Of a stretch of 64,000 nucleotides of DNA, positions 1 to 36,000 are shown piece after piece. The DNA is taken from positions 9,894 to 73,893 of the forward strand of contig JBJTOK010000079.1 of NCBI GenBank assembly GCA_046074525.1, written 5' to 3'. A program made the position numbers and the translations under genes. The stretch is from Flavobacteriales bacterium. GTDB taxonomy: Bacteria; Bacteroidota; Bacteroidia; Flavobacteriales_C; GCA-002722245. The notes below the pieces were generated by a model. The model worked only from the letters and a program-made list of their open reading frames with translations. It was not told the origin of the DNA and did not search any database. The number at the start of each line of letters is the position of its first letter. Within the stretch, counting starts at the first letter, position 1.

Positions 1-1680
1 CACCAACGGTTCAATTTCGGAGATGATGCGTGGGCGGTTTTCGGCCAGTACAAGGATGATGGGTTTTCCTGTTTTGGCCAATTCTTTAACCAGATTCAAC
101 TGCGCTTTTTCCATGGTTAAATCTTCAATATCGCCTGGTTTTTCGGCCGATGGTTTTTCTCCGAGGCACACAATAATGAAATTAGCGTTTTGAGCTTCTT
201 TTACAGCTTTTCCGGTATTTACATCGCTGTCATAAGAAGTACCCTGTACGAAAATTACTTTGTCACTGCCGATTTCATTTTGAATGGCTTGTACTATTGT
301 TTTTTTATCGGTGGGATTGTATTTGTCGTCAACTCCCTGCCATGTATGTGTCCACGCACCATTCAGAGGATTTAATGAATTGGCAGCAACACCGCAAACC
401 AATGTTTTTTTATCTTTTGGTAATGGGAGAATGTTGTTTTTGTTTTTCAGCAGGGTGATGCTTTCTAGTGCTGCCTGGAAATTTTGTTGGGCAAATTCTG
501 CCGATCCGAATTTCGGATAGTTTTTCATTTCATAGTAAGGATGTTCGAAGAGTCCGAGCATGAATTTTACGCGCAAAATTCTTCTTACTGCATCATCAAT
601 CCGGCTCATGGGAACTTTTTCTTCTTTCACCAGTTCGATGAGCAATTTGCAGAAAGATACATCCTGCGGAGTCATACTCATATCGATACCGGCGTTGATG
701 GCCAGGGCGATGGCATCTTTATATGTAGGTGCTACTTTGTGCACGCTGTGAAGCATAATAATGTCTTCCCAATCGGTCACTGCAAAGCCCTGGAAGTTCA
801 ATTCCTGTTTTAAAATTTCTGTGAGGATGTGATAATCGGCATGCACCGGTGTTCCGTTAATTTCGGTGGAGTTGATCATCACAGTCATCGCTCCGTTTTT
901 AATGGCTTCGGCAAAGGGAACTAAATAATATTCACGCAATAATCTTTCGGGCATAAGTATAGGTGTTCTGTCTTTTCCGGAAGCAGGCTGACTGTAGCCT
1001 ACAAAATGTTTGAGACAGGCTGCTACTTTTTCGGGATCATTGAAATTATTGCCCTGATAACCTTTGATAGCGGCATTTCCCATTTGCGTGGCCAGATAAG
1101 GATCTTCACCATAAGTTTCAAAGAAACGCGACCAAAGAGGTTGTCGACCCAAGTCGAGTACAGGAGAAAAATTCCACGGAATAGCAGAAGCGCGCACTTC
1201 ATACGCACAAACAGAGGTTCCTTTTTCTACGAGAGAAGGATTCCAAGTTGCAGCCATTCCCAATTCCTGAGGGAAGAGTGTGGATCCTTGTGTAAAGGTA
1301 GCTCCGTGTATCGCATCAATTCCGTAAAGAACAGGAATTTTCATTCGTGTTTTTTCGGCAGCTGTTTTCTGAATACTGCTGATGATGGTATACCAGTTTT
1401 CCCTGCTTAAGGTATGAGATCCTGTATTCAGTATGGAACCTACATGGTAGCGCAATAAAACCGAATCGAGTTTTACGGAATCGATTTCCATGGTTTTAGC
1501 ATCTTCGGCACTTTTTTTACAAACCATATCGAGGGTGAGCTGCGTCATTTGTCCCACTTTTTCTTCGAGGGACATTTCCGATAATAAGCGGGTGATTTTC
1601 TCTTCGGTGTCGTTTTGCTGAGCCTGTAATACAGAGAGTGATAAGCAAAGCAGCGACAGGGATATGGTTTTGAGATTCAT
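1..1680 (-). CDS. Glycoside hydrolase family 3 (beta-glucosidase-like), N-terminal roughly 560 aa. The gene starts at 1680 and runs off the window start. It is absent from the ORF track because no stop lies inside the window.
   Basis: The reverse-strand translation from the ATG at 1680 gives a signal peptide (MNLKTISLSLLCLSLSVLQA). It then gives a GH3 N-domain pattern (EEKVGQMTQLTLDMV) and GH3 C-domain-like sequence towards position 1. A 6-bp gap to the upstream gene supports an operon. Confidence 0.75.
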   Translation of the reverse strand, partial: MNLKTISLSLLCLSLSVLQAQQNDTEEKITRLLSEMSLEEKVGQMTQLTLDMVCKKSAEDAKTMEIDSVKLDSVLLRYHVGSILNTGSHTLSRENWYTIISSIQKTAAEKTRMKIPVLYGIDAIHGATFTQGSTLFPQELGMAATWNPSLVEKGTSVCAYEVRASAIPWNFSPVLDLGRQPLWSRFFETYGEDPYLATQMGNAAIKGYQGNNFNDPEKVAACLKHFVGYSQPASGKDRTPILMPERLLREYYLVPFAEAIKNGAMTVMINSTEINGTPVHADYHILTEILKQELNFQGFAVTDWEDIIMLHSVHKVAPTYKDAIALAINAGIDMSMTPQDVSFCKLLIELVKEEKVPMSRIDDAVRRILRVKFMLGLFEHPYYEMKNYPKFGSAEFAQQNFQAALESITLLKNKNNILPLPKDKKTLVCGVAANSLNPLNGAWTHTWQGVDDKYNPTDKKTIVQAIQNEIGSDKVIFVQGTSYDSDVNTGKAVKEAQNANFIIVCLGEKPSAEKPGDIEDLTMEKAQLNLVKELAKTGKPIILVLAENRPRIISEIEPLV

Positions 1681-1686
1681 GACAAA

Positions 1687-2661
1687 TTATGGTTGATAAG
1701 GTTTGTTGAAAGTAAATACAGGATGATCAAAAGCAACTGACACAGGATTGGTGTAAGGCGCAGTTTGATCGGAAAGCAATACAAAAGATACACTGGTCAG
1801 CTTATTTGGTTTAGCATCTCCGGTAACGTTGGCATCGGGAATCAAATCGTTGTAATTGTAGCTGAGTAATTTCCATCCATACCAATCGGGACGAATGCTG
1901 ATACCTCTTGCGTTTACACCATTTTCTGAGAAGTTTATCTGCAACCAGGTATCAGAAGGACCTTTGCCATACACCATGATATTGAAGTAAACGCGGTTCG
2001 CATCAGGGTATAAAGGGAAGTAAGTGCCATAATCCTCATCGGCATATTTAGCACTGATGGTCATGTAATTCACATATGGATTGTTTTGCCATGGTGTTCC
2101 CGACATATAGAAAAATTTTCCGCCGTCGGCCAGGATATTGTCTGTGTAAACATTGTTGGTAATGCTTACAGGAGGCCAGTCGCGTGGCCATTCGGTATTG
2201 CTTTTCAGTGTAGCGAAATCAGTCACCAGTACACTTCCCGCATCATGATTCACCATACCGGTAGTGAAAAGCGTAGTGGTAAAAGTATCGGTAGTGTGTT
2301 TGAAAGTGAGTTGTGCAGTCACTGTTTCTTTCTGGAAAGAAGGAGCGTCATCGGCATAGCCTGTCCATCGTGAATTCGACGCATCAATCGTTTTTGAAAT
2401 ACCTTTGATGGTTTTCACAGCAGTGCTTGTATTTCCTTTAAGAGTAATCTGCCATTCGGTTTCATTTTCAAATTCGGCAGTGAAATACTGTTCTTCGTTT
2501 TTTGAAAAATCTACTGATGCTGCTTTTTTATCGAAGCCTGAAAGCACAGTCACCGGACCGGAGATGGTTGACAAATCGGGTCCTAAGTTTTCCTTTGAGC
2601 AGCTCCATCCGAATAAGAGAACGGAGCTAATGCCCAATGATATTAAAATTGATTTTTTCAT
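1687..2661 (-). CDS. Surface lipoprotein of unknown function, a candidate glycan-binding protein (SusE/F-like position in the operon).
   Basis: The N-terminus is a lipoprotein signal (MKKSILISLGISSVLLFGWSCSK). The protein is Trp/Tyr/Asn rich, and the gene is tightly coupled (11 bp and 6 bp gaps) between an OMP gene and the GH3 gene. Confidence 0.55.
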   Translation of the reverse strand: MKKSILISLGISSVLLFGWSCSKENLGPDLSTISGPVTVLSGFDKKAASVDFSKNEEQYFTAEFENETEWQITLKGNTSTAVKTIKGISKTIDASNSRWTGYADDAPSFQKETVTAQLTFKHTTDTFTTTLFTTGMVNHDAGSVLVTDFATLKSNTEWPRDWPPVSITNNVYTDNILADGGKFFYMSGTPWQNNPYVNYMTISAKYADEDYGTYFPLYPDANRVYFNIMVYGKGPSDTWLQINFSENGVNARGISIRPDWYGWKLLSYNYNDLIPDANVTGDAKPNKLTSVSFVLLSDQTAPYTNPVSVAFDHPVFTFNKPYQP

Positions 2662-2672
2662 AGTATATAATT

Positions 2673-4409
2673 TTAATAAGTCATGCTGAACATTACTACC
2701 ACCTGATTGATAGAGTAAGTATTGGCCGCAGTTTTATTATCTGTGTAGTTGAAGATATGGTCCTGTAAAGTGAGGTAAGTTTTTTCGCTGAAGCGGTATT
2801 TTAATCCCACTGCAATTAAGCTTTGTTTCAAATCAACATTGATAGGGTTGAAGGTGGTAATGTCATTGAATTTGTTTCTTACCGCCATTGATTCGTTACC
2901 TTGTGCGAGTAGCATTTTGTAGCCGGCGAGCAAGCTCAGTTTCTTGAAAGTTTCCACTTCCAGTCCGAGATCCACCATGTTGTTCATCAGACTCACATAA
3001 GTTGTAGTATCGCCGCCTCTGTTGGTAGATTCAAATTTGTAACCAGTATTCACAATCAATCTTTTTTTCCATCCGAGGAATTTATTGATGTGGAAATCAA
3101 CACCACCTTTTACCACGATGAAAGAGCGAAGTTGTGCGGAACCTTCACCTACTACTTCCGAAAGGAAAGCAGCATCAACATCGGCTATGATGCGTTGCAG
3201 TGAGTCGCTGCATTGCAGGTTGATGTTAGCGCCGGTACGGTTAGGTGTAGCTTTTCCGTAAGGTTGTGCATTGCCGTAAATTGGATTGTAAGCCATGAGT
3301 GTAGTTACAATTCCGGCATTGTATAAAGCAGGATCTCTCACCAGGTCGAAGATGGAAATGCCACGGGAGATAAGGTTTGTTACATCATTTCCATAGTTGG
3401 AAAAAGTAGTAGGTGTATTTGTGTAATTCACTCGTTTGCTTTGTGCTGCCGAGCTGAAGAAATTAGGATCAACATAAGAATAGTTGGCACTGATAATGGT
3501 GTTGGCATTCTTCAGTTTCAGTTGCAATCCGGCATCGAAGAAAGCCCCCATTTTGGTGTCTACATTATATCCTTTGAAGCTGTATTGCGAGAAACCACCT
3601 TCGGCCATTAATTTCAGTTTCATTTTATTGTTGGCAAACAGTGCCGCTTCCACTTCAGCAGAACCTACAGGATTGCTTGTAGTCAAACTGTCGATGATAG
3701 TATTGGTTCCTACTTCATAAAGATCGAGGTAGTTGAAAGCCAGTTTTAATTTGCTGCTTTGCGTTACCGTAATCTTACCTCCTGCGTGGAAGGCCGAAGG
3801 AAACTGGGCATAGCTGGCTCTGTTTCTGAGGAAGAAACCATCAATGCGAATGGTATCAAATAAAGATTTGTCGAACGCAAAAGAAAAATTAGTGTGCGCT
3901 CCCTGCTGCCACCATGCATTGCCGCGGTTGCTGAAGTTTTCATAATTTGTGTAATCGTTGCGCAAATCGCGGAATATGCTTCCTTCGTTCACAGAACCTT
4001 CTGCGTTGTTGTTGAAGAAAGTATAAGGAGTGAGCTGCATATATAAATCTCCTACCTGATAATTAAAAGCTCTTCCAACAATGCCTTTTACATAAAGTTG
4101 TCGCAATGTTGCCTGGGCACCGGCAGTATAGAAGCCATTGAAATTATTGTTGAAACGCACGATGGCCTGTATCTCAGTTCTTTTGTCGGGATTAACATTG
4201 ATACCCAAATCGAGTAACACATTTCCTTTATTGGTATGGTCGGGATTAACGGTATCGGCTGCTCCCAGCGTATTGGTTTGTTGCAATGCCCTTGAATAGG
4301 CATTGAATTTTATTTTGTCATCCTGTGCGTTCATCAATTGAACGCCGATGAGCATTAAGCCGGCTAAGAGCGCTTTCTTATTCATTTTATGTAGATATGA
4401 AGTTTGCAT
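2673..4409 (-). CDS. Uncharacterised outer-membrane beta-barrel candidate (putative porin-like). The true start is probably the internal ATG at 4385 (MNKKALLAGLMLIGVQLMNAQ).
   Basis: It has a cleavable signal peptide without a lipobox Cys. Amphipathic alternating beta-strand patterns occur throughout (LKLAFNYLDLYEV, KLKLMAEGGF). The C-terminus is aromatic (..VVVMFSMTY). No TonB box or plug motifs are present. Confidence 0.5.
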   Translation of the reverse strand: MQTSYLHKMNKKALLAGLMLIGVQLMNAQDDKIKFNAYSRALQQTNTLGAADTVNPDHTNKGNVLLDLGINVNPDKRTEIQAIVRFNNNFNGFYTAGAQATLRQLYVKGIVGRAFNYQVGDLYMQLTPYTFFNNNAEGSVNEGSIFRDLRNDYTNYENFSNRGNAWWQQGAHTNFSFAFDKSLFDTIRIDGFFLRNRASYAQFPSAFHAGGKITVTQSSKLKLAFNYLDLYEVGTNTIIDSLTTSNPVGSAEVEAALFANNKMKLKLMAEGGFSQYSFKGYNVDTKMGAFFDAGLQLKLKNANTIISANYSYVDPNFFSSAAQSKRVNYTNTPTTFSNYGNDVTNLISRGISIFDLVRDPALYNAGIVTTLMAYNPIYGNAQPYGKATPNRTGANINLQCSDSLQRIIADVDAAFLSEVVGEGSAQLRSFIVVKGGVDFHINKFLGWKKRLIVNTGYKFESTNRGGDTTTYVSLMNNMVDLGLEVETFKKLSLLAGYKMLLAQGNESMAVRNKFNDITTFNPINVDLKQSLIAVGLKYRFSEKTYLTLQDHIFNYTDNKTAANTYSINQVVVMFSMTY

Positions 4410-4420
4410 ATAGAAGAAGT

Positions 4421-6373
4421 TTAGAACATTATTTTTAATTCAACAGTACCTTCTGTTCCCGAGAATTTTTCTGCGGCGAAGTTGTGATCGATGAAAGAGA
4501 AATATCTTTCTCTGAAGTAAAGTGTGGCCTGGTTGGAGAGTGTCAAATCGAAACCAGCTCCGATGGCCTGTCCTACCTGATCTCTTGGTAAACCTGATGT
4601 AATATCCAAATCAGTGTCTCCGTTGCATTTGATCACTTCTAGTCCGCCATAAAGCGTCAGAACGAAATTTTTATGCAGTTGGTAGTACACATCTATTTCA
4701 TGGTAATAGCCTCTGATGTAGGCACTGTAATCAAATTTTGTAAAGGCCGAAAAATCTTTCTGTACCGAGTTGAGTGAAGTAAGATAGTTGATGTACAAAT
4801 CTTTCCTGAACAGCGAACTTTTGAATTTTACCTGGAAATCGAAAGAGTTGAAATAACGGGTATAAATCAAAGAAGAATCGGCATTGATATCGGTAAGATT
4901 TACTTTTTCGTAAGCTCCGCGATAGAAAGTGTGCACTCTTTTGTTTGGTCCGAAACCACCGGCGAGAGGGAATACCCCTGGCAATCTCGACCAAAGAAGG
5001 CCGTTGATTCTGTGACTGTAGTTCAGTGTAGTAGCATTGGCAATGTTTTCCATTTCAGCAGAAATCTGTGTCCCGGTGGACACCATAAATTTCCATACTT
5101 TGAAATTGGTGTTGATGGCAGCACCTCTGCGGTTGTTGGCTAAATCGCCTACATTGTCCATTCCCGGACCGAAAGGGGTGAGTACTCCTTGCGCTCCTGC
5201 TTGTGAATAAGGACCGCTGTTGACCTGACTAACAGTGGTATTGTTAAAACTGGCTACGTTGCTGGTAAAACTTTTTCCGATTTGGAAATAACGCAAATCA
5301 ATAGGAATGAAAGTGTATTTTTTTGGAATGTTTACATCCAGTAAAATTCCTTCGCTCCAGTTTTCAGGGCTAGTCGGACTCATATATCTTCCCATACCTA
5401 CTTCACCGCTCAGAGCAATATCTTTGATTTTAAGTGCAAATTCCGAAGTGAAAATATTCCACTGCATGTTGTAAGAAGAGTTGACACTGTCGGTGCGCGC
5501 AAATGAATTAAATGTATTTAAGCTCACATAGTTTTCCTTTTTCAGGTTTCTCTTAAGTCGCACACCGAGATTTTGTGCCGGACGCACTTCGATTTCCCGG
5601 CTGATGCCACCGTTGATAGCAGTGTGTCCGTAAAAAATATCAAAGTTGGTTTTCAGTTTCTTGATGAAGCCATTCATCATAAATCCTTTAAAGGCTTGAG
5701 ATCCGAAACGGGCATCCTGGTTGATGCTTCCTTTATAATAATAAGAAGCATAACGCGATTTGATATTTCCTGATGGATCCCATGGGCGGCGTTCATAAAT
5801 GCTATAGCGGTTGTAACCTACGTTGGAACCAAAGGTGAACGGAGTAAGGCGCATCCATTCAATACCACCGGCTACAATATTGAAATTTCCATGTTTATTG
5901 GTGGTGCCGCCGCGCAAAACAGCAGAGAAAAAAGGACCAACATTTCCGTTGCTGCCCATAGCCGGACCGCGGTAAAGGGTAAACGGACTTCCCAGTATAA
6001 CTTCGGTACCAAAGCTGGTACCCGGTGCAGGAGATCCGCCCACATAAAGAAATAACACAGGATCATAATAGCCGTCACCCACACTGTTTACATGTTTTGC
6101 GTCAGTAGGCTGATACAGTTGTTGCATTTCCCTGTTGTAGAAAAAACCTCTGTAGTAACCACCTGTGTTGAGACCGCTCAGAAAGTTGTTCAATAAACTT
6201 TTGGATACCGGCGCAGTGATTTCGTCGGAAGTATTTTCTCTCACGAGAGAATTTCTCTGAATATCCCAGGATGCAGAATCCCTGTCTGTTTGTGCATGTA
6301 CAGTGCCGAGGCAACATGCAAAAAGCAGGGGAAGAAAGTGTTTTTTATGAAGAGTAAGATTCATTATTTCCAA
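4421..6373 (-). CDS. Uncharacterised outer-membrane beta-barrel candidate (putative porin family, about 650 aa).
   Basis: A signal peptide is present. The protein is Gly/Asn/Tyr/Phe-rich with alternating hydrophobic strands, and the C-terminus ..GTVELKIMF ends in Phe as classical OMP barrels do. It is too short for a SusC TonB-dependent transporter and has no TonB box. It sits 13 bp downstream of the GH16 gene. Confidence 0.5.
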   Translation of the reverse strand: MEIMNLTLHKKHFLPLLFACCLGTVHAQTDRDSASWDIQRNSLVRENTSDEITAPVSKSLLNNFLSGLNTGGYYRGFFYNREMQQLYQPTDAKHVNSVGDGYYDPVLFLYVGGSPAPGTSFGTEVILGSPFTLYRGPAMGSNGNVGPFFSAVLRGGTTNKHGNFNIVAGGIEWMRLTPFTFGSNVGYNRYSIYERRPWDPSGNIKSRYASYYYKGSINQDARFGSQAFKGFMMNGFIKKLKTNFDIFYGHTAINGGISREIEVRPAQNLGVRLKRNLKKENYVSLNTFNSFARTDSVNSSYNMQWNIFTSEFALKIKDIALSGEVGMGRYMSPTSPENWSEGILLDVNIPKKYTFIPIDLRYFQIGKSFTSNVASFNNTTVSQVNSGPYSQAGAQGVLTPFGPGMDNVGDLANNRRGAAINTNFKVWKFMVSTGTQISAEMENIANATTLNYSHRINGLLWSRLPGVFPLAGGFGPNKRVHTFYRGAYEKVNLTDINADSSLIYTRYFNSFDFQVKFKSSLFRKDLYINYLTSLNSVQKDFSAFTKFDYSAYIRGYYHEIDVYYQLHKNFVLTLYGGLEVIKCNGDTDLDITSGLPRDQVGQAIGAGFDLTLSNQATLYFRERYFSFIDHNFAAEKFSGTEGTVELKIMF

Positions 6374-6386
6374 TGTTTATTAAGGT

Positions 6387-7289
6387 TTATAATTTTTTAA
6401 ACACGCGTACATAGTCCACATACATGTACTTCGGGAAAAGAGTGTTTTCATCAGGAGGCCCAGGCCAGTCGCCACCCACAGCGAGGTTTAGTATCATGTG
6501 AAAATTCTGGTCGAAAGGCCAATGCTTTCCATCGAGGTCTCCCGGTTTTTTAGTAGAGTAGAGGACATCGTCCACGTACCATCTTATTTCATTCGGTTCC
6601 CATTCTACAGAGAAAACATGGAAGGCAGTAGACAAATCTCCTTGCGAGAGTTCGGTGGTGTCGCCTACGTGTTTGTTTTTAGGCCAGGGCTCACCAAAGT
6701 GAATGGTACCGTATACCGTTTTAGGCTGGTGGCCGATGGATTCCATGATGTCAATTTCACCACTCTGCGGCCATGAACCGTACACATAATCGGTAGGCAG
6801 CATCCATATGGCAGGCCATGTTCCTCTTTGCACAGGCACTTTAGCCCGGATGTCGAAACGCCCGTAAGTCCAGTCGGCTTTGTTCTTCGTACGCATTCTC
6901 GCCGAAGTGTAAAACTTGCCTTTGTAGTTTTGTTTAATGGCCTTGATGACCAGATATTTATTGTTGTTGATGTAAGAGTTGTTGCGTGAATCGGTATAGT
7001 ACTGCTGCTCATTATTTCCACCTCCGTCGCCGTTTACTTCATGACTCCATTTACTGGTGTCGATTTTAGGAGCGCTGAATTCATCGCTCCAGATGAGTTT
7101 CCAGCCAGTTCTTGATTCCGGCGATTTGTAACCGTTGTCGGTGGTGGTGGTATTGTCGACAATCACCACTTCCGATGCAGGTTGGTAGAGGTCGGGTAAA
7201 TCGACCAGACTTACCTGCGAGCACTTGCTGAAAAGCAGTGCTGATGAGGCAAGGATAGTGAATAAGTAAATGTTCTTTTTGATATACAT
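6387..7289 (-). CDS. Glycoside hydrolase family 16 endo-beta-1,3(4)-glucanase (laminarinase/lichenase type).
   Basis: The GH16 catalytic motif E-I-D-I-M-E appears in WPQSGEIDIMESIG. There is an N-terminal signal peptide (possible lipoprotein, ..LLFSKCSQ), and the length of 300 aa is typical. Confidence 0.85.
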   Translation of the reverse strand: MYIKKNIYLFTILASSALLFSKCSQVSLVDLPDLYQPASEVVIVDNTTTTDNGYKSPESRTGWKLIWSDEFSAPKIDTSKWSHEVNGDGGGNNEQQYYTDSRNNSYINNNKYLVIKAIKQNYKGKFYTSARMRTKNKADWTYGRFDIRAKVPVQRGTWPAIWMLPTDYVYGSWPQSGEIDIMESIGHQPKTVYGTIHFGEPWPKNKHVGDTTELSQGDLSTAFHVFSVEWEPNEIRWYVDDVLYSTKKPGDLDGKHWPFDQNFHMILNLAVGGDWPGPPDENTLFPKYMYVDYVRVFKKL

Positions 7290-7312
7290 GTTAGTTGGAT
7301 TATGGTGGTTGT

Positions 7313-7891
7313 TTATTTTTTGATGAAGCGGATTTCATCGAAGTAAATCGTACCTACAGGAAGTACCATATACAACATGGTGTTTACTCTTTTGAAATCG
7401 TGGCCTTTTAAGCTGATGCTGAATTTTTTCCATTCGGTATCCACCTCCAGGTAGCTGTCGCTCACTTTGTCTTCAGGCGAACCTCCACCACCTACACCAA
7501 TGTCTTGCAGCAGGTAGGGGCCATCACCAGTTTCTTCAGCACGCGCGTAAAATTCCAGTGTGTTGTAGGCAGAAAGATCAGGTAGTTTAGCATCGTCCTT
7601 CAATGCTACATTCCATGAACCGGTGTATTGAATATGCAAACCTCTCCAGCTTTCTTTGTTGGTGGTAACGATTTTTACACAGTTTTCACCTTTGTAAGGC
7701 TTGTCTTTGCAGACACTTTCAATTTTCATGCTTTCACCATTTTTTTCTCCCATGAATCCTGTGGGAATACCGTGAATCCAGTTGTCGGAGAAAACATAAT
7801 AAGGTTCAACTTCCCCTTCGATGAAGGATATGGAAAGAACGGCGAGTGCCAAGACTGCTGCTGTTTTTAAAATTGTTCGGATGTGCATCAT
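7313..7891 (-). CDS. Small secreted protein of unknown function and first gene of the beta-glucan operon. It is a paralog of 8419..9042 and a possible carbohydrate-binding-module-like protein.
   Basis: It has a signal peptide. It shares motifs with 8419..9042 (GFMGxxNGxSMxIxxxC...ESW..., TEW+K, TIYxD+IR+). The gap to the GH16 gene is 23 bp. Confidence 0.5.
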   Translation of the reverse strand: MMHIRTILKTAAVLALAVLSISFIEGEVEPYYVFSDNWIHGIPTGFMGEKNGESMKIESVCKDKPYKGENCVKIVTTNKESWRGLHIQYTGSWNVALKDDAKLPDLSAYNTLEFYARAEETGDGPYLLQDIGVGGGGSPEDKVSDSYLEVDTEWKKFSISLKGHDFKRVNTMLYMVLPVGTIYFDEIRFIKK

Positions 7892-7916
7892 ATACCTTTT
7901 TTATTTTTTTTTATGG

Positions 7917-7924
7917 GCTATTGA
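7917..7924 (-). promoter_or_regulatory. Candidate Bacteroidota sigma-A -7 element (TAccTTTG) for the beta-glucan operon.
   Basis: The reverse strand reads TACCTTTG, matching TAnnTTTG, 26-33 nt upstream of the ATG at 7891. No clear -33 TTG was found. Confidence 0.25.
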
Positions 7925-8207
7925 ATCAAAGGTAGGCGGGGTGTCTTCTTTGAATGTGTGACAATCGTTCGGAAAGAGTACAAAATCATCCGTAGGATTT
8001 GTTCGCTGATCTTTTAGTGAAATTGAAGAAGGGAAATGTTTTTTTTTGATTCGTACGATAATGAACTCTTTGTGAATGATTTTGTTCCCTTGTATTGCTC
8101 TCTGTGATTTACTTTTGTGAAGAGTAGTAAATTTCATAGTGCTGTAATAAAAACATCTGTTGCGTACAGGTGTAGAGGTTAACCAGAACGCTAGTTTAAG
8201 TTGATTC

Positions 8208-8245
8208 TGTCCCGTGCTTTAGAGGGAAAGCACGGGATTTTTTTG
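8208..8245 (+). terminator. Orphan intrinsic-terminator-like hairpin (10-bp stem cccgtgcttt/aaagcacggg followed by T7) on the plus strand, with no upstream plus-strand gene.
   Basis: The stem-loop plus U-tract is read directly from the sequence. It lies 170 nt upstream of the 8419 start codon in a 528-bp divergent spacer. Confidence 0.35.
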
Positions 8246-8418
8246 TTTTATAATTTTCTTAGTGAATTTTTTTTCTCGCGCATGTCATCCTTCGGGAGTA
8301 CCCTCGGGATGACATACGCGGGGAGAGACAGGGAAAATGTTAGCTAGTACAAACGAAGACTTTTTCTGTACAAATCAATCCCTATCTGCGCGCAGAGCGG
8401 TCCTACCTTAGCTCTATA

Positions 8419-9042
8419 ATGCCAAACCCAACAACTATGAATAAGATTATAAAACTGACAACACTGGCGCTGATTACAGCTGTGTTTTCATCCTGTACAA
8501 AGGATCCGATTTTAGCTGCCGATCAAAATAAAAAAACCGAGACCACTACCACTTCAACTGCAAGCGATGGTGAGCTTTATCTTGAAGAGCAACTGTATCC
8601 GCTCAATGGATTTATGGGGTCGAATAATGGTCAGAGCATGACCATTGATCACCTTTGCACAGAAAACCCTCATTCAGGAAAACATTGTTTGTCGATTACT
8701 TTCGACGGTAGTGAATCGTGGAGCGGGAATGTAATGTTTGCTTCTACACCATGGAAGTCGAATATTGGAAAAGATCTCTCCGGATATAAAAGACTCACCT
8801 TCTGGACACGCTGTAATCAAAAGGGTTTGGGTAACGGACAAATCCACATGGGGATGAAAACCAACGGCAATGATTTTTACGGACAGTTTTTCAATTACAC
8901 CAGTACCGAGTGGAGAAAAATTACCATCACACTTCCTGGAACAGTGAACAGTACACTCATCAATTATCTTTTTGAATATTCACAGAATGCACCCGTAGCA
9001 GGATCAACTATTTACCTGGATGATATCCGTTACGAGAAATAG
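8419..9042 (+). CDS. Small lipoprotein and paralog of 7313..7891 (unknown function, CBM-like). The start is possibly the ATG at 8437 (MNKIIKLTTLALITAVFSSC).
   Basis: There is a lipoprotein signal with Cys, and it shares the conserved blocks of 7313..7891. A terminator lies downstream. Confidence 0.5.
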   Translation: MPNPTTMNKIIKLTTLALITAVFSSCTKDPILAADQNKKTETTTTSTASDGELYLEEQLYPLNGFMGSNNGQSMTIDHLCTENPHSGKHCLSITFDGSESWSGNVMFASTPWKSNIGKDLSGYKRLTFWTRCNQKGLGNGQIHMGMKTNGNDFYGQFFNYTSTEWRKITITLPGTVNSTLINYLFEYSQNAPVAGSTIYLDDIRYEK

Positions 9043-9065
9043 TTTTCTTTCCTAACCCGTGTCCC

Positions 9066-9104
9066 GAGGGATTCGTCCGAAAGGAGAATCCCTCTTCTTT
9101 TTAG
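9066..9104 (+). terminator. Intrinsic terminator (gagggattc ... gaatccctc, then ttctttttag).
   Basis: A 9-bp perfect stem plus a T-rich tract sits 24 nt after the stop of 8419..9042. Confidence 0.5.
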
Positions 9105-9127
9105 ATGAAAATTAAAACACAATCAAT

Positions 9128-10099: not shown

Positions 10100-10105
10100 C
10101 TTTTA

Positions 10106-10213
10106 AACCATAAAGGGCACAGAGATCACAGAGTTATCGTGCGCAAAGAAAACAGCTTAAAGCTGCAAGCTCTGTGTTCAAATCGGTCTCTGCGATCTCT
10201 GTGCCTTGTGGTT
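10106..10213. repeat. Intergenic nested-hairpin repeat element (copy A of a 2-copy family, REP/MITE-like). It fills the convergent spacer between the AKR gene and the secreted GH16 gene.
   Basis: The terminal imperfect 27-bp IR is aaccataaagggcacagagatcacagag / ctctgcgatctctgtgccttgtggtt. The internal palindrome is cagcttaaagctg. It shares end motifs and a gcgcaaagaaaacagct core with the 14489..14638 copy, in inverse orientation. Confidence 0.5.
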
Positions 10214-10223
10214 AAGTAAGAAG

Positions 10224-19975: not shown

Positions 19976-20017
19976 GAGGTTCAGTAATGTGAATTTTTAG
20001 AAACGTTTTATCATAAG

Positions 20018-28300: not shown

Positions 28301-29519
28301 CAACTGGGGTACTGCTTTCAAGAGCAATGTGGTGGCGGTTACCAACAACACTACAGATGTTGCTCTCACTGTGGAAGCCGAGGATTTCAATAATGGTGGT
28401 TCACATTATGGTTACTGGGATAAAACCGATGCCAATTCAGGAGGCAATAATTCCCGTTCAGGAGAAGGAGTGGATATTGAAACCCGTGGTAATGTGGTGG
28501 ATATAGGATGGATTGAGAATGGCGAATGGTTGAGGTATACGGTGAATGTTACCAAGGCAGGCTTGTACGATATCGATTTCACTGTGGCTGCAGGCAATAC
28601 GGGAGGAAAATTCCATTTGAGCGTGAATGGCACTAATTTATCGGGCGACCTAACTGTTCCTAATACAGGAGATTGGGGGAATTGGACTACTGTTACGGCT
28701 CTCAATATTCCTTTGCAGGCGGGCGAGCAGTACATTGATTTGCGTTTCAATGGCGGATTCAATCTGGATAAGTTTCAGTTCCGCAAATCAGCACCATACC
28801 AGGGCACGGCGTATAATGGTCCGCACAACGTTCCCGGAACTTTTGAAGCCGAAGATTATGACAATGGTGGAACAGGAGTGGCTTATTATGACAGCGATGT
28901 CGCCAACAACAGCGGTGCTTACAGAACAACAGAAGGCGTAGATCTGGAAACCTCCAACGGTAGTACGCACATCAGCTGGTCGAATAGTGGTGAGTGGACC
29001 AAGTACACTATTGTTGTGGCTACTGATGGCACTTATGAAGTGCAGATTCCTGTGTCTACGGGCAATGGCGCAGCAGGGACCTTGTCGCTCACTTTCGATG
29101 ATGTGTATACTGTACCTGTCGCCAGCATCAATACCGGCAACTGGAACACCTATCAATCACTTACGATCAAAGACATTCAGCTTACGGCCGGAACGCACGT
29201 AATGAAGCTGAATATTGGCGGAAACATCAATGTAGATCAATTCACTTTTACGAAAAGCATTACCACAGCAATGCCGGAAGCGACTGCGCAGCATCACATC
29301 AGCATTTATCCTAACCCTTCGGCCGATGGTATTTTTAATATCAAAGCCACGCAGCAGGGGCAGCTGATCATCAGTGATGTGGCAGGCAAAATGGTGCTGA
29401 GCGAAATAGTGGCTGAGCCGGGAAACATTGATTTGTCGGGCCGTGCGTCGGGTATTTATATTGCTACGTTTATTACCGGAGAGCAGACTTACAGGTTTAA
29501 GCTGATGGTGAATAAATAA
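25266..29519 (+). CDS. 5'-truncated composite glycoside hydrolase, possibly a pseudogene or gene fusion. It has a Pectate_lyase_3-type right-handed beta-helix (GH55-like exo-beta-1,3-glucanase architecture), a discoidin/CBM32-like domain, a GH43-like five-bladed propeller, two CBM6-like domains and a T9SS type-A CTD. The coding frame is open from 25209 (after a TGA) with no signal peptide. The ORF-track start is a TTG.
   Basis: The beta-helix start motif is YNVLNYGVTAGTRDA..DATTGIQNALNQAKNDGGGIVYLPPGHYRING. The discoidin block is NTSWSS...YIRMD. GH43 motifs are (ADPSAHVWADGRLYVYASHD, WAPDCAY, DPCVFVDDDG). Two modules of TVEAEDFNNGG...LDKFQF / TFEAEDYDNGG...VDQFTF are present. The Por tail is (ISIYPNPSADGIF...YRFKLMVNK). 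Confidence 0.6.
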   Translation: MYFDGSNGVGIMFTDMKITGCEYGVYAAANTGGVLQLYKWNISATDAAIFSDKTSGTKILLQESAIASGKVQLQGGTLLATDNDFNNTAPQIQFEYNSRGNLTGNRFKNAVNISEKSVFLNQIDHTPVSSIKLPAYYEFIPQSKKPSRNVMYNVLNYGVTAGTRDAIPAGDATTGIQNALNQAKNDGGGIVYLPPGHYRINGSLTIPTGVELKGSVDIGEFPLGPGSILEIYGNKGNENGASPVILQQGSGLRGVVFNYPDQVFCTVLPNAVLKFPYSVQVQGSDAYIVNVGFRAAYKAVDLFSYKSDRFYLDFLTGHVFNEGAKVGAASADGIIANMQFNTIAYNCGDESKFGGWPNSLRSPCSGDATKNPYDYNAKYLDFLIVGNAPDIMLYNDFNYDANHGLILQDGASGTAIGLGLDGDRTGILVDGNANFSFINTQDVSLNYDALGGEQSSYLKTTSNFNAGSINLFSCDYWGQATSSGIVMDGAGTVNLQSSNFESPGSQSFAQVNNGTLNINNSVVNPKDPLVNGTHLSGVNIVGSDVTPYTINTNLLGNYDNNIGTAKPSPTSSLSRTGWIATSSRNVNSGRVAQNGIDGDANTSWSSGWQNDGAAIWYQVDMLVPQTFNEVILDYSGSPNDGPASYTFSVSNDGVNWTQVASGTGNNMMTIISFPETTARYIRMDKPANASKANFLAIHELYVFNVKAAAGNLVAVPMKNPLYHQFTSPLYGSAGTGNMYTADPSAHVWADGRLYVYASHDMEPAQGCDRMDRYHVFSTDDMTNWVDHGEILSASQVSWGRAEGGFMWAPDCAYNPANQTYYFYYPHPSGTDWGATWKIGVATSKEPAANFTDQGYITGMSSLIDPCVFVDDDGQPYIYQGGGGTCMGGKLDKNDWTKLDGAMQPMTGLVDFHEATWVHKYNGKYYLSHADNHGVDGNQLKYAVSNSPLGPWTDMGVLMYATGCDTHHGSIVEYKGQWWSFYHTSNFSGEYNLRSVCADKLYYNNDGSIQPVNNWGTAFKSNVVAVTNNTTDVALTVEAEDFNNGGSHYGYWDKTDANSGGNNSRSGEGVDIETRGNVVDIGWIENGEWLRYTVNVTKAGLYDIDFTVAAGNTGGKFHLSVNGTNLSGDLTVPNTGDWGNWTTVTALNIPLQAGEQYIDLRFNGGFNLDKFQFRKSAPYQGTAYNGPHNVPGTFEAEDYDNGGTGVAYYDSDVANNSGAYRTTEGVDLETSNGSTHISWSNSGEWTKYTIVVATDGTYEVQIPVSTGNGAAGTLSLTFDDVYTVPVASINTGNWNTYQSLTIKDIQLTAGTHVMKLNIGGNINVDQFTFTKSITTAMPEATAQHHISIYPNPSADGIFNIKATQQGQLIISDVAGKMVLSEIVAEPGNIDLSGRASGIYIATFITGEQTYRFKLMVNK

Positions 29520-29693: not shown

Positions 29694-31301
29694 GTGAAAT
29701 ATAAGTTTTTATTGATTTGTTGTTTCGCCTTTACTTTCGTGGCCTTTGCCAGTGAAGACGAAGATACCATGTATGTCCAGCTGGACAGTCTTTTGGAACA
29801 AAAACCACAACTTGTAAAAGATAAGCAACAGCGTATTCAATCGCTGGCCCGTATGTTGTTCGATAGCGAGCGCCGAAAAGACGTGCAGAGCCAATTTCAA
29901 TTTTGCGCCAAGCTTTTTGAAGAATACAAATCCTTCCAGTACGATTCGGCTTTTAAGTACACCGACCGTATGCTTAAGCTTGCCTACGTCCTCAATGATC
30001 CCGCGAAAATCAACAACGCAAAAGTCAATTTTAGTTTTATTTTCCTTTCATCTGGGATGTTTAAGGAAGCCCTGGATACTTTGTCTACAGTTGATGCGAT
30101 GGCGCTGCCTGTAGCGGAAAGAATCAATTTCTATAAAGTTTTTGCCCGCACTTATTTTGATCTTTCGGATTTCTCGCAAAGTCAGCAATACAGTCAGTCT
30201 TATAATAATAAAGGCGATGAGTATGTCACCCGTGCTCTCGATCTTTCGGAGAAAGCGTCGGCAGAGTACCTTTTCCTTAAGGCTTGGAAATACATGCGTA
30301 TCCGCAACATTGAAATGGCCATTAAAACCTACCAGAAGCTTCTCTTGTATTATAATCTCACCCAACACGAATATGCTATTGTAACTTCCAGTTTGAGCTT
30401 CATGTACATGCTCGATAACAACCAGGAGAAGCACAAGGAATTCCTGATTAAAGCTGCCATTGCGGATATCCGGGGATGTGTGTTTGAAACAGTGGCATTG
30501 CGCAATCTTGCGGAAATTGTATACAAGGAAGGGAATTATGAGCGTGCTTACCGCTACATCAAAATTGCCAATGATGATGCTTATGCCTATGGCGCAAAAT
30601 TCCGCCAGGTGCAGGTGGCTTATCTCCTGCCGATGATAGAAGCTGCCCAAATGAATGAAGTGGAAAGCAAAAGAAGAAATCTCATCGTTTTCGCGCTCTT
30701 TGCGAGTTTAGTGAGCGTATTGATCTTTATTTTGTACTTCATAGTTTACCGCAACAACATTAAACTTAAACTGGCTAAACAAAGTTTGGTGGAGTCACAT
30801 GTGCATTTACAGGTACTCAATAATACCCTTCAGGATGCCAATAAAATCAAGGAGGAATATATCGGTCACTTCTTCACAGCGATTTCAGACTACATAGATA
30901 AATTGGATAAACTCAAGAATTCCATCGACAGGAAAATTACGCAAAACAGGACTGATCAGATACGTGATGTGGTGAAGCAAATTAATCTTAAGGCGGAAAG
31001 GGAGGAACTATATGGTAATTTCGATAGGATTTTCCTCAAAATATTTCCTGATTTCATCCCTAAATTCAATAGCTTCCTCAATGAAGATGCAAAATATGTA
31101 ATTGAGGAGAATGCCCCGTTGCCGCCTGAATTGAGAATTTTTGCTCTGATTCGTTTAGGGATCAATGACAATGAGAAAATTGCGCAGTTTTTAGGATATT
31201 CCATCAATACGATTTATACCTATAAAACGAGATTGAAGAACAAAACCATTGTCCCTAATGAAAAGCTGGAAGTGCGGGTGATGGAAATCAAAGCGAATTG
31301 A
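29694..31301 (+). CDS. Membrane-anchored one-component regulator candidate. It has a signal peptide, an extracytoplasmic TPR-like region, a single TM helix and a cytoplasmic coiled-coil plus C-terminal helix-turn-helix (DUF6377-like architecture).
   Basis: The signal is MKYKFLLICCFAFTFVAFA and the TM segment is LIVFALFASLVSVLIFILYFIVY. The C-terminal LuxR/HTH-like segment is ELRIFALIRLGINDNEKIAQFLGYSINTIYTYKTRLKNK. Confidence 0.5.
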   Translation: MKYKFLLICCFAFTFVAFASEDEDTMYVQLDSLLEQKPQLVKDKQQRIQSLARMLFDSERRKDVQSQFQFCAKLFEEYKSFQYDSAFKYTDRMLKLAYVLNDPAKINNAKVNFSFIFLSSGMFKEALDTLSTVDAMALPVAERINFYKVFARTYFDLSDFSQSQQYSQSYNNKGDEYVTRALDLSEKASAEYLFLKAWKYMRIRNIEMAIKTYQKLLLYYNLTQHEYAIVTSSLSFMYMLDNNQEKHKEFLIKAAIADIRGCVFETVALRNLAEIVYKEGNYERAYRYIKIANDDAYAYGAKFRQVQVAYLLPMIEAAQMNEVESKRRNLIVFALFASLVSVLIFILYFIVYRNNIKLKLAKQSLVESHVHLQVLNNTLQDANKIKEEYIGHFFTAISDYIDKLDKLKNSIDRKITQNRTDQIRDVVKQINLKAEREELYGNFDRIFLKIFPDFIPKFNSFLNEDAKYVIEENAPLPPELRIFALIRLGINDNEKIAQFLGYSINTIYTYKTRLKNKTIVPNEKLEVRVMEIKAN

Positions 31302-32148: not shown

Positions 32149-32168
32149 TAGAAAAGTAGGGGCTTTTG

Positions 32169-33164: not shown

Positions 33165-34499
33165 ATGAAGCATATCGTTTTATTAGGAGCCGGTCGGAGT
33201 AGCTCGGTTTTACTGGAATATCTCAAGGAGCATGCCATCGGCATGTTGTTGAAAATTAGTGTTGCAGATATCTCATTAAACCATGCAAAGGACATAGTAA
33301 AAAATCATTCCTCATTCAGTTTCCATGATTTGCAAAAAACACCTGCTGTAAAGGAAGAACTCATCAGCCAGGCAGATATTGTGCTTTCCATGCTACCTGC
33401 AAGTCTGCATATTGAAGTAGCCAAGCTGTGTTTACAGTATAAAAAACACCTTGTAACGGCTTCTTATGTTTCGCCTGAAATGAAGGCGATGGAAGAAGAA
33501 GTAAAAAATGCCGGATTGATCTTTATGAATGAAGCCGGATTGGATCCAGGATTAGACCACATGTCGGCAATGAAAATTATCGATCATCTTCGTGATGAAG
33601 GAGCGCTGTTGCACGGATTTGAATCTTTTTGCGGCGGACTCATCGCACCCGAAAGCGATGATAATCCGTGGCGATATAAATTTACATGGAATCCACGAAA
33701 TGTAGTGGTGGCCGGACAAGGCGGTGCTGCCATGTTTTTACAGGAAGGAACTTACAAATACATTCCTTACCACAAATTATTCCGACGCACCGAAGTCATC
33801 AATATTGAAGGTTATGGGAAATTTGAAGGTTATGCGAATCGTGATTCATTGAAGTATATAGATATCTACGGCTTACAAGGTATAAAAACTATTTTCCGCG
33901 GAACGCTGCGCCGACTGGGCTTTTGCCGTGCCTGGGATCTTTTTGTTCAATTGGGCATGACCGACGATAGTTATCGTATTCCTGATTCCGATAAGATGAC
34001 GCACCGGCAGTTCATCAATTTATTTCTCGCCTATAACAAACACGATTCCGTGGAGCTTAAGCTGAAGCATTACCTGAAGCTGGAGCAGGATGATGTGGAT
34101 ATTTGGGAAAAGCTGGAGTATACGGGCATTTTCAGCAATGAGAAAATCGGATTGAAAAATGCAACGCCTGCACAAATTCTTCAGCATATTTTAGAAAAGA
34201 AGTGGAAGTTGAATCACAACGATAAGGACATGATCATCATGTTTCATCGTTTCAACTATAAACTCAACAACGAAATGAAGGAACTTCATTCTTACCTCGT
34301 TGTGGAAGGAGAAGATGAAAACAACACAGCCATGGCCAAAACAGTTGGCTTGCCAGTGGGTATCATCGCAAAAATGATTTTGAATGATGAAATCAAAAGC
34401 CGCGGAGTGCTCGTTGCTGTGCAAAAAGAAGTGTACGATCCTGTGCTGGAGGAACTGAAAAAATACAACATTAATTTTATTGAGAAGCAGGCTATCTGA
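33165..34499 (+). CDS. Saccharopine dehydrogenase family protein (NAD(P)-binding Rossmann domain plus C-terminal domain).
   Basis: The N-terminus is MKHIVLLGAGRSSSVLLEYL. The length of 444 aa is typical for this Bacteroidota family. Confidence 0.75.
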   Translation: MKHIVLLGAGRSSSVLLEYLKEHAIGMLLKISVADISLNHAKDIVKNHSSFSFHDLQKTPAVKEELISQADIVLSMLPASLHIEVAKLCLQYKKHLVTASYVSPEMKAMEEEVKNAGLIFMNEAGLDPGLDHMSAMKIIDHLRDEGALLHGFESFCGGLIAPESDDNPWRYKFTWNPRNVVVAGQGGAAMFLQEGTYKYIPYHKLFRRTEVINIEGYGKFEGYANRDSLKYIDIYGLQGIKTIFRGTLRRLGFCRAWDLFVQLGMTDDSYRIPDSDKMTHRQFINLFLAYNKHDSVELKLKHYLKLEQDDVDIWEKLEYTGIFSNEKIGLKNATPAQILQHILEKKWKLNHNDKDMIIMFHRFNYKLNNEMKELHSYLVVEGEDENNTAMAKTVGLPVGIIAKMILNDEIKSRGVLVAVQKEVYDPVLEELKKYNINFIEKQAI

Positions 34500-36000
34500 T
34501 CAGGTTCAGGTGTGTGAATTGCTGCACTTTTTGTTTCTTGTCGGTATTGGGAGACAAGCCTTCGTACTCGTAGTACACCACGTATACTCCTATCGGAGCA
34601 CCATTGCCATCCCAGCCTTTGGAAGGATCGGTAGTTTCAAACACCAGTTCTCCCCAGCGATTGAAAATGCTTAGTCGCATGATATAAATTGATTCTCCCT
34701 GTACCGCGAAAACATCGTTGATTCCATCTCCGTTGGGTGAGAAGGCATTCGGTAAATAAAAAAAGGTGGGATAACAATAATCCTTGATGTTTACACTGTC
34801 GCTAACACTGCAGTTTTTTCCATTGGATAATGTAAGGTTATAAGTTCCTTCACCGTGAATGGAAATCATATCGGTTTTTTCTCCTGTCGACCACGTGTAA
34901 TTCAATGCATTTCCGGCGTGCAAATCGTAAGAAGACACGAAAGCAAAACACAGTGTGGTATCGCTTTCCAGTGTAGATACAGGAATGCCCAAAGGGGAAA
35001 GTTTAATAGTGTCATTGTCGGTGCAGCCAAAACCATTGTCAACGTTTACGGTGTATGTCCCGGCATTGGTAACGTATGTGCTGGCAGTTGTAGCGCCATT
35101 CGACCAGCTGAATTGGTAATTCGATGGTAAATCGGTTTTTAATAAATTACTGTCGCCGGGACAAATATTTTTATCAGCACCCAAATCCACTGATATGGAA
35201 GGATGTACTACCACAACCACACTGTCTTCACTGAAACAAACTGATTTGAAGGAAATATCATCCATGGCAAAGTCGTTGCCCTGACCTTCGGTGTTCTGGT
35301 TCACCACACATATTTCTGCGGAGGTAGCGACGCCTGAGTTCCACAATTCATAAAACTGGTACCACTGGCAGGTGTTTTCCGAGGCACGGAATGGATCGCC
35401 CAATAACTGATTATTAATGGAGAATTGCAATAAGGCCGGATTTTCATCGAGGACGGAAGTGATCCAGGTGGTGAACTGATAATCGGTGTTGGGATTTACA
35501 GGAACCGTCTGGCACCACACCTTCACTCCGGCAACAGTTGCAGCATCCATGATCATCATGTTGCCCGATCCGCCGGTATGATCGGAACAGGCATCCCATC
35601 CAGGCCAGTATATATTGGTAACGTTATTCACGCAATAATTGCCTTGCTCCAAACTCCCCGGAGAGCAATCTACTCCATACTGACTGGTGAAGCCCATATC
35701 GCCCTGCTCAAAATTTCCATTGACGATGCTTTCAACAGGGTAGAGGTAGCGGTTCAATACATGGTATTCGGTAGTACTTGTGGGAGAGGCCACAGGACTC
35801 GCGGAGGTAGAGTCGCTCAGGTTGGTTTTCGGCGACCAGCTCATTGCATACTTGGTTCCGAGAGCTTGCAGAGTAACGGATTTTCCTGAGCAAATTTCCA
35901 AAGTGTCGGGAACAATGTTAACGGAGCAATTGATCTGTGCATACAGCATCAGTGAAGGAAAGAGGAGGAGAAGTAAAACTATATTTTTCAATTTGCCCAT
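34492..36000 (-). CDS. T9SS type-B C-terminal-domain protein (gliding-motility-associated CTD) with Ig-like repeats.
   Basis: It has a signal peptide. The C-terminal hallmark is PNAFSPNGDGINDVF....IFNRWGELVFE. Confidence 0.75.
   Translation of the reverse strand: MGKLKNIVLLLLLFPSLMLYAQINCSVNIVPDTLEICSGKSVTLQALGTKYAMSWSPKTNLSDSTSASPVASPTSTTEYHVLNRYLYPVESIVNGNFEQGDMGFTSQYGVDCSPGSLEQGNYCVNNVTNIYWPGWDACSDHTGGSGNMMIMDAATVAGVKVWCQTVPVNPNTDYQFTTWITSVLDENPALLQFSINNQLLGDPFRASENTCQWYQFYELWNSGVATSAEICVVNQNTEGQGNDFAMDDISFKSVCFSEDSVVVVVHPSISVDLGADKNICPGDSNLLKTDLPSNYQFSWSNGATTASTYVTNAGTYTVNVDNGFGCTDNDTIKLSPLGIPVSTLESDTTLCFAFVSSYDLHAGNALNYTWSTGEKTDMISIHGEGTYNLTLSNGKNCSVSDSVNIKDYCYPTFFYLPNAFSPNGDGINDVFAVQGESIYIMRLSIFNRWGELVFETTDPSKGWDGNGAPIGVYVVYYEYEGLSPNTDKKQKVQQFTHLNLIR

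Follow-up and report, generated by a model that had tools for sequence, protein, structure and literature searches.

A six-gene operon with two predicted outer-membrane barrels

We analyzed a 64,000-nt stretch of DNA (the window) from the metagenome-assembled genome (MAG) of a Flavobacteriales bacterium (GCA_046074525.1, contig JBJTOK010000079.1, positions 9,894-73,893 of the forward strand). At its left-hand end lies an operon that combines two predicted outer-membrane beta-barrels, A and B, and a lipoprotein, C, with glycoside hydrolases (GH) of laminarinase and beta-glucosidase type; this operon and its immediate neighbors are the subject of the present study. Predictions of glycan use in Bacteroidota depend almost wholly on SusC/SusD pairs, and an earlier note on this DNA had proposed that the first 36 kb form a SusCD-free beta-glucan system assisted by a type IX secretion system (T9SS). 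Our results favor such a system for ~12 kb (1-12.4 kb); the extent given for it was about three times too large. Window proteins were taken from a listing of open reading frames (ORFs) and scanned against Pfam, NCBIfam (release 20) and TIGRFAM.

The operon occupies positions 1-7891 of the minus strand and comprises six genes separated by gaps of 6-23 bp: X192, a GH16 lipoprotein, barrel A, barrel B, lipoprotein C and a GH3. The porin-type operon with GH16 and GH3 described in the earlier note is therefore recovered here, with two barrel-like proteins and a lipoprotein encoded between the two hydrolases. The first gene, X192 (7313-7891, minus strand), codes for a small secreted protein resembling a carbohydrate-binding module (CBM) and finds no match in Pfam. 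The second (6387-7289, minus strand) encodes a 300-aa lipoprotein (lipobox LLFSKC followed by SQVSLV; Pfam GH16 at E 2e-23), an endo-beta-1,3-glucanase of laminarinase type whose top PDB relatives are laminarinases (3ILN at E 2e-67; 2HYK; 3AZX). The final gene (1-1680, minus strand) is a partial GH3 beta-glucosidase with its C-terminus beyond the window; its translation starts with a type-I signal peptide (MNLKTISLSLLCLSLSVLQA followed by QQ), and because of this peptide the enzyme is predicted to be periplasmic.

Divergent from the operon lies X207 (8419-9042, plus strand), a CBM-like lipoprotein (FSSC followed by TKD) with a weak choice-of-anchor-J match and a paralogue of X192 (33% identity, E 4e-21). 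It is followed by an aldo/keto reductase (AKR; 9128-10099, plus strand; Pfam E 1e-55). The next gene (10224-12356, minus strand) encodes a 710-aa GH16 with a signal peptide, two PKD domains and a type-A C-terminal domain (CTD; Por_Secre_tail/TIGR04183, found with both Pfam and TIGR04183), which matches laminarinases in PDB at E 1e-41 to 1e-44 (5WUT at E 9e-44). CTD and signal peptide, the two marks of type-A T9SS cargo, are both present in this protein, as they are in the first giant protein described below. The earlier idea of T9SS-secreted enzymes is supported by this laminarinase-type GH16 beside the operon; genes for the T9SS machinery itself are absent from the window.

Barrel A (650 aa, 4421-6373), barrel B (578 aa, 2673-4409) and lipoprotein C (324 aa, 1687-2661), all on the minus strand, are assigned by the homology given below as CHU_1276-family, CHU_1277-like and CHU_1278-like, respectively. 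None of the three has a sequence match in Pfam, NCBIfam (release 20) or PDB. AlphaFold2 models built with family alignments (pLDDT 82.3 and pTM 0.81 for A; 90.7 and 0.86 for B) show barrels of ~22-24 strands each, without a plug domain and with long loops able to narrow the lumen (residues 175-225 and 366-414 in A, 125-165 and 314-390 in B). Comparison with PDB by Foldseek retrieved only generic barrel matches for both (TM-scores 0.25-0.40). Barrel A matched TonB-dependent transporter barrels, ushers, AlgE and porins, and barrel B FimD/PapC ushers, MtrB, LptD and porins/chitoporin (best TM 0.3-0.4 in each case); neither has a close solved relative. We considered the two barrels as paralogues and rejected this, as they share no significant similarity. 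For barrel A, the presence of a TonB box or a plug was likewise rejected: its ~40 N-terminal residues are variable, with only an acidic/Ser-rich start. Among 35 diverse members per family no Plug or TonB-receptor domain was found, only occasional weak generic OMP_b-brl matches.

Barrel A is 100% identical to the NCBI hypothetical protein ACKOXB_15225. A word-index search yielded 89 homologues of barrel A and 108 of barrel B, almost all from MAGs or metagenomes, and its rerun with the barrel A profile (A1) added none. Apart from one CBM_4_9 and one OMP_b-brl record (the latter for barrel B), both isolated and weak, these homologues have no precomputed Pfam domain. An exhaustive barrel A profile search returned 394 clusters at 50% identity among 1.84 billion representatives, and the clusters of 20 distant representatives bear only "hypothetical protein" names, from MAGs. 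An N-terminal CBM_4_9 is found in some relatives of barrel A. Those of 790-836 aa (P0088, i.e. L088:4977-7352; P0225, P0226, P0229, P0242 and P0271) have an N-terminal extension of ~180 aa, which in P0088 is a CBM_4_9, i.e. a carbohydrate-binding module fused to the barrel. The barrel A family also has members in marine Tara metagenomes (P0360 cluster, Tara Oceans Flavobacteriales), and that of barrel B extends to a cultured Rhodothermia species (P0176, Rubricoccus marinus BSZ36_11525).

The two lipoproteins of the operon differ in the residues that follow the lipobox cysteine. In lipoprotein C these are S-K-E, with a family consensus of [KR]-K-[DE], which we take to resemble the surface-export signal of Bacteroidota lipoproteins. 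The GH16 lipoproteins of the cassette (window 6387-7289 and L007-L031) conserve S-x-V-[ST]-[LMF]-V-x-Q directly after the cysteine, with no acidic residues at this place. Since the motif is conserved and lacks acidic residues, the GH16 lipoprotein may face the periplasm, in which case fairly long chains would have to be imported; the two motifs may thus mark different membrane faces, or one may be a docking strand. A periplasmic GH16 would parallel the periplasmic endoglucanases required in Cytophaga hutchinsonii (Zhu 2016, as cited in PMC12016534).

Recurrence of the cassette and its counterpart in Cytophaga

A scan of species-representative genomes gave 370 stretches related to the cassette. 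Taxonomy was read for the best 80 of the 370, all of them Bacteroidota MAGs belonging to Flavobacteriales (including Crocinitomicaceae, Fluviicola and Lishizhenia), Cytophagales and Chitinophagaceae. Synteny was counted over 86 loci related to the cassette, many of them on truncated contigs. Barrel B directly follows barrel A in 83 of these and lipoprotein C follows barrel B in 72; a GH3 stands downstream in 43 (the genes called there carry Pfam GH3, GH3_C and Fn3-like domains) and GH16 is present in 37. The GH16 lipoprotein lies 5' of barrel A in all operons of the window type, and X192 is kept 5' of GH16 in 23 loci. This gene order is more than chance, as it recurs in dozens of genomes. The closest relative (L007, 70% identity) has only X207, which is syntenic there, the AKR and the operon in common with the window. 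It is also the single locus of the 86 with the AKR beside the cassette, and a part of this enzyme in the system is unproven. For the genes further to the right, described in the next section, the result is different: homologues of the GH2 and of the SusR-family regulator occur in none of the 86 loci, and the giant proteins match via shared domains only. A comparison of co-occurrence had been proposed in the earlier note; A-B-C, GH16 and GH3 do recur, whereas GH2, giants, beta-helix/GH43 protein and SusR do not.

Several operon types share the cassette. That of the window reads (CTD protein), X192, GH16, A-B-C, GH3. Another consists of an NrtR/NUDIX or ECF-sigma (extracytoplasmic function) regulator, a clan GH-A TIM-barrel enzyme, A-B-C, a CBM30-like protein, GH3 and an unknown 281-aa protein; further types are GH18 with A-B-C, and GH26-CTD with A-B-C, and GH9 is the partner in a Cytophaga-type cluster (L089). 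For SusC/SusD, sought within 10 kb, and for type-A CTD genes, neighborhoods were counted over 88 loci. SusC or SusD was found near the cassette in three (L087, L037 and L076) and in none of the other 85. Gene content and homology together show A-B-C as a conserved cassette, modular in its glycoside hydrolases and usually without SusC/SusD nearby. At least one type-A CTD gene is present in 57 of the 88 loci (~0.63 per 10 kb), which suggests a recurrent association of the cassette with T9SS cargo; in another genome a GH16-CBM6-CTD enzyme is encoded near it.

Genomes of the window's lineage carry two paralogous GH16/GH3 cassette operons that are ~65-70% identical (P0095, i.e. ACKOXB_11335, from the same MAG as the window; L007 and L008, from one MAG, nzgw150). 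One of the two has X207 and the AKR upstream, the other a giant CHU_C protein and a ~620-aa gene. Genes of 626 and 630 aa at a comparable position in two other loci are 7TMR-DISM sensors.

A described counterpart exists in C. hutchinsonii, where chu_1276-chu_1280 are treated as a SusCD-independent "atypical PUL" (polysaccharide utilization locus; PMC12016534, published in 2025). CHU_1276 and CHU_1277 are outer-membrane proteins, both required for cellulose use; CHU_1276 is a predicted barrel under the control of an ECF sigma factor, and its model retrieves TonB-dependent transporter matches; CHU_1278 is a hypothetical beta-sandwich protein, CHU_1279 a 375-aa cellulose binder resembling a surface glycan-binding protein (SGBP-B-like), and CHU_1280 a GH9 endoglucanase (PMC12016534). 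As summarized in PMC12016534 and its references 22, 23, 26 and 27, chu_1276, chu_1277, chu_1279 and chu_1280 are each required for cellulose use, and CHU_1276 is linked to glucose uptake (its reference 23). CHU_1277 has been termed a porin and was recovered among cellulose-bound outer-membrane proteins (PMC5553014). The organism depends on T9SS cellulases, and the chu_1276-1280 cluster has been reported from only two further cellulolytic species, i.e. from three cellulolytic Cytophagaceae in all (PMC12016534).

Our barrel A profile matches a 749-aa protein, P0238, at E 1e-130 (BLASTP 26% identity over 684 columns, E 2e-53), and the 90%-identity cluster of P0238 includes MGN6645131.1, which NCBI names "CHU_1276 family cellulose-binding protein [Cytophaga sp.]". 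The gene order in L089 (749-aa protein, 599-aa protein, 388-aa lipoprotein, 375-aa protein, GH9) equals the published chu_1276-1280 architecture. Its first three genes match those of the window one by one: barrel A and gene 1 with 26% identity (BLASTP E 1e-52, profile E 2e-133), barrel B and gene 2 with 32% (E 2e-84 and 6e-168), lipoprotein C and gene 3 with 25% (E 7e-17 and 6e-46). The Cytophaga counterparts likewise find no match in NCBIfam release 20. Judged by these similarities, A, B and C are shown to be homologous to, and colinear with, genes 1-3 of the Cytophaga-type cluster, and by homology the window system would belong to the CHU_1276-type atypical PUL class and would not be categorically new. 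Other cassette types have CBM-like proteins of 215-435 aa at the position of the fourth gene. We also looked in the fourth-gene proteins for the CHU_1279 residues Y253, F256 and F343, but this gave no information, and one of the candidate clusters turned out to consist of an unrelated membrane protein.

Proposed function and extent of the system

We put the probability at roughly two in three (0.68) that positions 1-12,356 encode a utilization system for beta-1,3-glucan (laminarin-type) of the CHU_1276-type atypical PUL class. In such a system laminarin would be cut outside the cell by the T9SS-secreted GH16-PKD-CTD enzyme, perhaps together with the GH16 lipoprotein, while the CBM-like X207 and X192 together with the surface lipoprotein C would hold the glycan at the cell surface. 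Oligosaccharides would then cross the outer membrane by barrel A and/or B without TonB energy, and the periplasmic GH3, possibly with the GH16, would finish their breakdown to glucose. Import through the barrels is presumably TonB-independent because a TonB-dependent transporter and a Plug are lacking and the barrels modeled in their place are plug-less.

Several points weigh against this interpretation. The import function of the barrels is a prediction from models. With no acidic, surface-export-like motif, the location of the GH16 lipoprotein is uncertain. The operon includes neither an inner-membrane sugar transporter nor a regulator. A homologue of the CHU_1279-type protein (the 375-aa gene 4 of L089) was not found among the window proteins, the best match being X192 at E 0.25. 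The link to CHU_1276 was drawn from an NCBI product name in a 90%-identity cluster and from cluster architecture, not from the ATCC 33406 sequences. The frequency of T9SS cargo was counted near cassettes, without a genome-wide control. The absence of SusCD, finally, refers to one 64-kb window and not to the whole genome, and the L087 cassette stands beside a canonical SusCD laminarin PUL, so that independence of SusCD is not general.

Another explanation, which we regard as rather unlikely, is that the cassette is an auxiliary channel, e.g. for small oligosaccharides or glucose, beside a canonical SusCD laminarin PUL elsewhere in the genome, and hence not SusCD-independent. At L087:299-18143 a canonical laminarin PUL (SusC, SusD, PKD protein, GH16) indeed stands back-to-back with a divergent operon of GH-A, A-B-C, a 393-aa protein and GH3; judging from this locus, two import systems can coexist at one site. 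L037 and L076 also have SusC or SusD near the cassette, and the C. hutchinsonii genome has SusC/D pairs too (PMC12016534). Yet 85 of 88 loci show no SusC/SusD within 10 kb, and the operon brings its own endo- and exo-enzyme. According to reference 22 as cited in PMC12016534, C. hutchinsonii can use cellulose without its SusC/D homologues. Within the 64 kb of the window neither SusC nor SusD was found, either by Pfam on ORFs of at least 150 aa or by BLASTP with the L087 SusC and SusD.

Distinctly improbable, in our view, is a role of A and B as a platform for surface assembly or anchoring, on which lipoprotein C, hydrolases and binders are presented, with sugars entering via other porins or SusCD. 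Its proponents could point to the best fold matches of barrel B (pilus ushers, MtrB and LptD, whose barrels hold or export partner proteins), to the lipoprotein that always accompanies the cassette, and to the loss of cell-associated beta-glucosidase activity in chu_1276 and chu_1277 mutants (PMC5553014). The TM-scores to ushers are only ~0.4, however, and neither a plug nor periplasmic domains of usher type are predicted; downstream in the operon comes a periplasmic GH3 or GH9, as in import systems, and chu_1276 has been linked to glucose uptake (reference 23, as cited in PMC12016534).

The genes from 12.6 kb onward had been counted into the same system. The first is a GH2 (12606-14477, plus strand) of beta-glucuronidase/galacturonidase type (PDB 6D1N at E 1e-214, 7VQM at E 2e-197), a neighbor outside the conserved system and, by its relatives, not a beta-glucan enzyme. 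GH2 and AKR are both present, as the earlier note had said; the place it gave the GH2 in the system is not upheld, this enzyme being of uronide type and found in 0 of 86 loci, and the AKR recurs in one locus. The GH2 is similar over almost its full length to enzymes of gut Bacteroides, which is unexpected in a freshwater MAG beside a laminarin operon.

Two giant genes follow in tandem on the plus strand. Giant 1 (14873-19975, 1700 aa) consists of a propeller of PQQ-type aldose dehydrogenases, an Ig domain, four F5/8C domains alternating with four Big_7, and a type-A CTD. Giant 2 (20302-25221), its 68%-identical paralogue, has a signal peptide and is cut inside a discoidin domain. The N-terminal domain of the giants matches GSDH with 142 bits and PDB 2ISM, a PQQ-type soluble aldose dehydrogenase, at E 4e-26, so they probably act as enzymes in addition to carrying CBM32-like modules; "lectin-like", as they had been called, fits their discoidin modules and leaves out the propeller. 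From their domains, the tandem (14873-25221; propeller, Ig, then 4-5 repeats of discoidin and Big_7) appears to be an unusual fusion of surface sugar oxidoreductase and lectin.

Giant 2 had rightly been described as truncated: it ends with "...SQFADPQHL" inside a discoidin domain at ~25,220, and the ORF that follows, in another frame, begins in the middle of a domain (breakpoint ~25,219-25,222). This second ORF (25222-29519, plus strand; 1417 aa) is N-terminally truncated, as assembled has neither signal peptide nor start codon context, and comprises a PF12708 beta-helix, F5/8C, GH43, two CBM6 and a type-A CTD. There is no repeat at the junction (no common 12-mers), and for this reason a genuine deletion cannot be told from a MAG assembly chimera; with either, both genes are broken as assembled. 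The GH55 reported earlier for this composite protein could not be confirmed, the label resting on a PF12708 match of 29.7 bits over 60 residues of an N-terminally truncated domain; phmmer of the beta-helix against PDB gave nothing at E<=0.01 and only antibody light chains, no GH55 structure, at E<=10. The GH43 resembles beta-xylosidases/arabinofuranosidases and, on this similarity, is not a beta-glucan enzyme. Instead of the four type-A CTD proteins counted previously, Pfam/TIGRFAM and an independent iterated CTD profile agree on three, giant 2 having no such domain by either approach.

A SusR-family (DUF6377) regulator (29694-31301, plus strand; NCBIfam NF058541, 574 bits, cut-off 480) lies directly after the broken beta-helix/GH43 gene and 17 kb from the operon. 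Most likely the adjoining plus-strand genes, and not the cassette, are its targets. It scores above the NCBIfam equivalog cut-off although the window is without SusC/SusD. The one type-B CTD (CHU_C) protein that had been reported does exist (34492-36000, minus strand). As a member of the system it was rejected, for it has no glycan-related domain and housekeeping genes (rpe, an rpoD-like sigma-70 gene and a saccharopine dehydrogenase gene) intervene. Judged from their sequences, the genes at 12.6-31.3 kb form an accessory set of their own for other glycans, non-conserved and partly broken; they are placed outside the system because they are missing from homologous loci and because their closest characterized relatives act on uronides, xylose or arabinose.

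That the whole 1-36 kb should be one co-regulated T9SS-dependent beta-glucan system, in which discoidin giants tether the glycan and GH2, AKR and GH55/GH43 take part, is very improbable. In its favor, the genes cluster physically, 31 kb hold three type-A CTD proteins together with a SusR-family regulator, and the remainder of the window has no CAZymes (carbohydrate-active enzymes). Against it, GH2, giants, beta-helix/GH43 and SusR are missing from all 86 homologous loci, including the closest relative (70%), the GH2 and GH43 are of glucuronidase/galacturonidase and xylosidase/arabinofuranosidase type, GH55 is unconfirmed, giant 2 and the GH43 gene are broken, and the accessory genes lie on the other strand in transcription units other than the operon.

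From 36 to 64 kb the window holds housekeeping and exopolysaccharide genes. Those at 45707-54783 form an unrelated exopolysaccharide/capsule cluster (Wzz/GNVR tyrosine-kinase protein, Poly_export, the glycosyltransferases GT1 and GT4, an asparagine synthase-like protein and a dTDP-sugar epimerase). Two minus-strand genes at 38944-42039 encode proteins of 533 and 437 aa with only sub-threshold Pfam matches (bMG10, TSP_3).

Significance and comparison with known systems

To our knowledge, chu_1276-1280 is the only described exception of this type to the SusC/SusD rule, and it is treated as a peculiarity of three cellulolytic Cytophagaceae. In the window the same three outer-membrane proteins are wired to laminarinase genes, and related cassettes occur at ~370 loci in species representatives with at least five hydrolase partners; neither barrel family is covered by a Pfam or NCBIfam model. 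The searchable literature on CHU_1276/CHU_1277 all concerns C. hutchinsonii; it contains no account of the beta-1,3-glucan version, of how broad the family is or of its modular combination with several GH families. If the cassette is an importer, it would explain how many freshwater Flavobacteriales, Cytophagales and Chitinophagales without a recognizable PUL use algal beta-glucan, it would offer soluble-substrate systems (laminarin) for a mechanism that is hard to dissect on crystalline cellulose, and it would be a reason to include these families in PUL and CAZyme-cluster predictors.

A wider reading, which we advance tentatively and at somewhat less than even odds, is that A-B-C is a second general glycan-import module of Bacteroidota: TonB-independent, built from two large plug-less barrels with a surface lipoprotein that caps or serves them, modular in its hydrolases and serving the uptake of long oligosaccharides without SusCD. 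With GH16/GH3 it may serve laminarin, with GH9 cellulose and with GH18 chitin; GH-A/GH3 and GH26 may be its partners on other beta-glycans. If this were true, PUL predictors keyed to SusC/SusD would systematically overlook some of the capacity of these clades to degrade polysaccharides.

Compared with the canonical Sus-like laminarin PULs ('Gramella forsetii', Bacteroides uniformis), the proposed beta-1,3-glucan system has the same division of labor, with an endo-GH16 outside, a periplasmic exo-GH3, accessory binders and a surface lipoprotein partner. In contrast to them it lacks a TonB-dependent transporter, a Plug and a SusD fold, and has two plug-less barrels instead. A regulator of SusR type, another feature of such PULs, is present in the window, though 17 kb away from the operon and in none of the related loci. 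With maltoporin/ScrY, ChiP, CymA and AlgE, all of which are among the fold-search matches, it shares the proposed TonB-independent passage of oligosaccharides and the location beside matching hydrolases. These channels have 14-18 strands, as opposed to ~22-24 in the A and B models, and the TM-scores are 0.25-0.36; A and B are also much larger and form an obligatory heterologous pair with a dedicated lipoprotein.

The closest known system is chu_1276-1280 of C. hutchinsonii (PMC12016534; Zhou 2016, Ji 2014 and Zhu 2016, as cited there). Both have two outer-membrane proteins, a lipoprotein and a glycoside hydrolase on one strand without SusC/SusD, both have T9SS-secreted endo-enzymes in the neighborhood, and CHU_1276 and barrel A are both large barrels whose models retrieve TonB-dependent transporter barrels. 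The enzymes differ, being GH16 and GH3 (beta-1,3-glucan) in the window and GH9 (cellulose) in C. hutchinsonii; the small CBM-like X192 and X207 stand in place of the SGBP-B-like CHU_1279 gene; and barrel A is ~100 residues shorter than its Cytophaga-type counterpart and only 26% identical to it. Whereas the C. hutchinsonii cluster has been reported from three cellulolytic species, the cassette described here is found in hundreds of genomes of mostly uncultured freshwater Flavobacteriales, Cytophagales and Chitinophagales.

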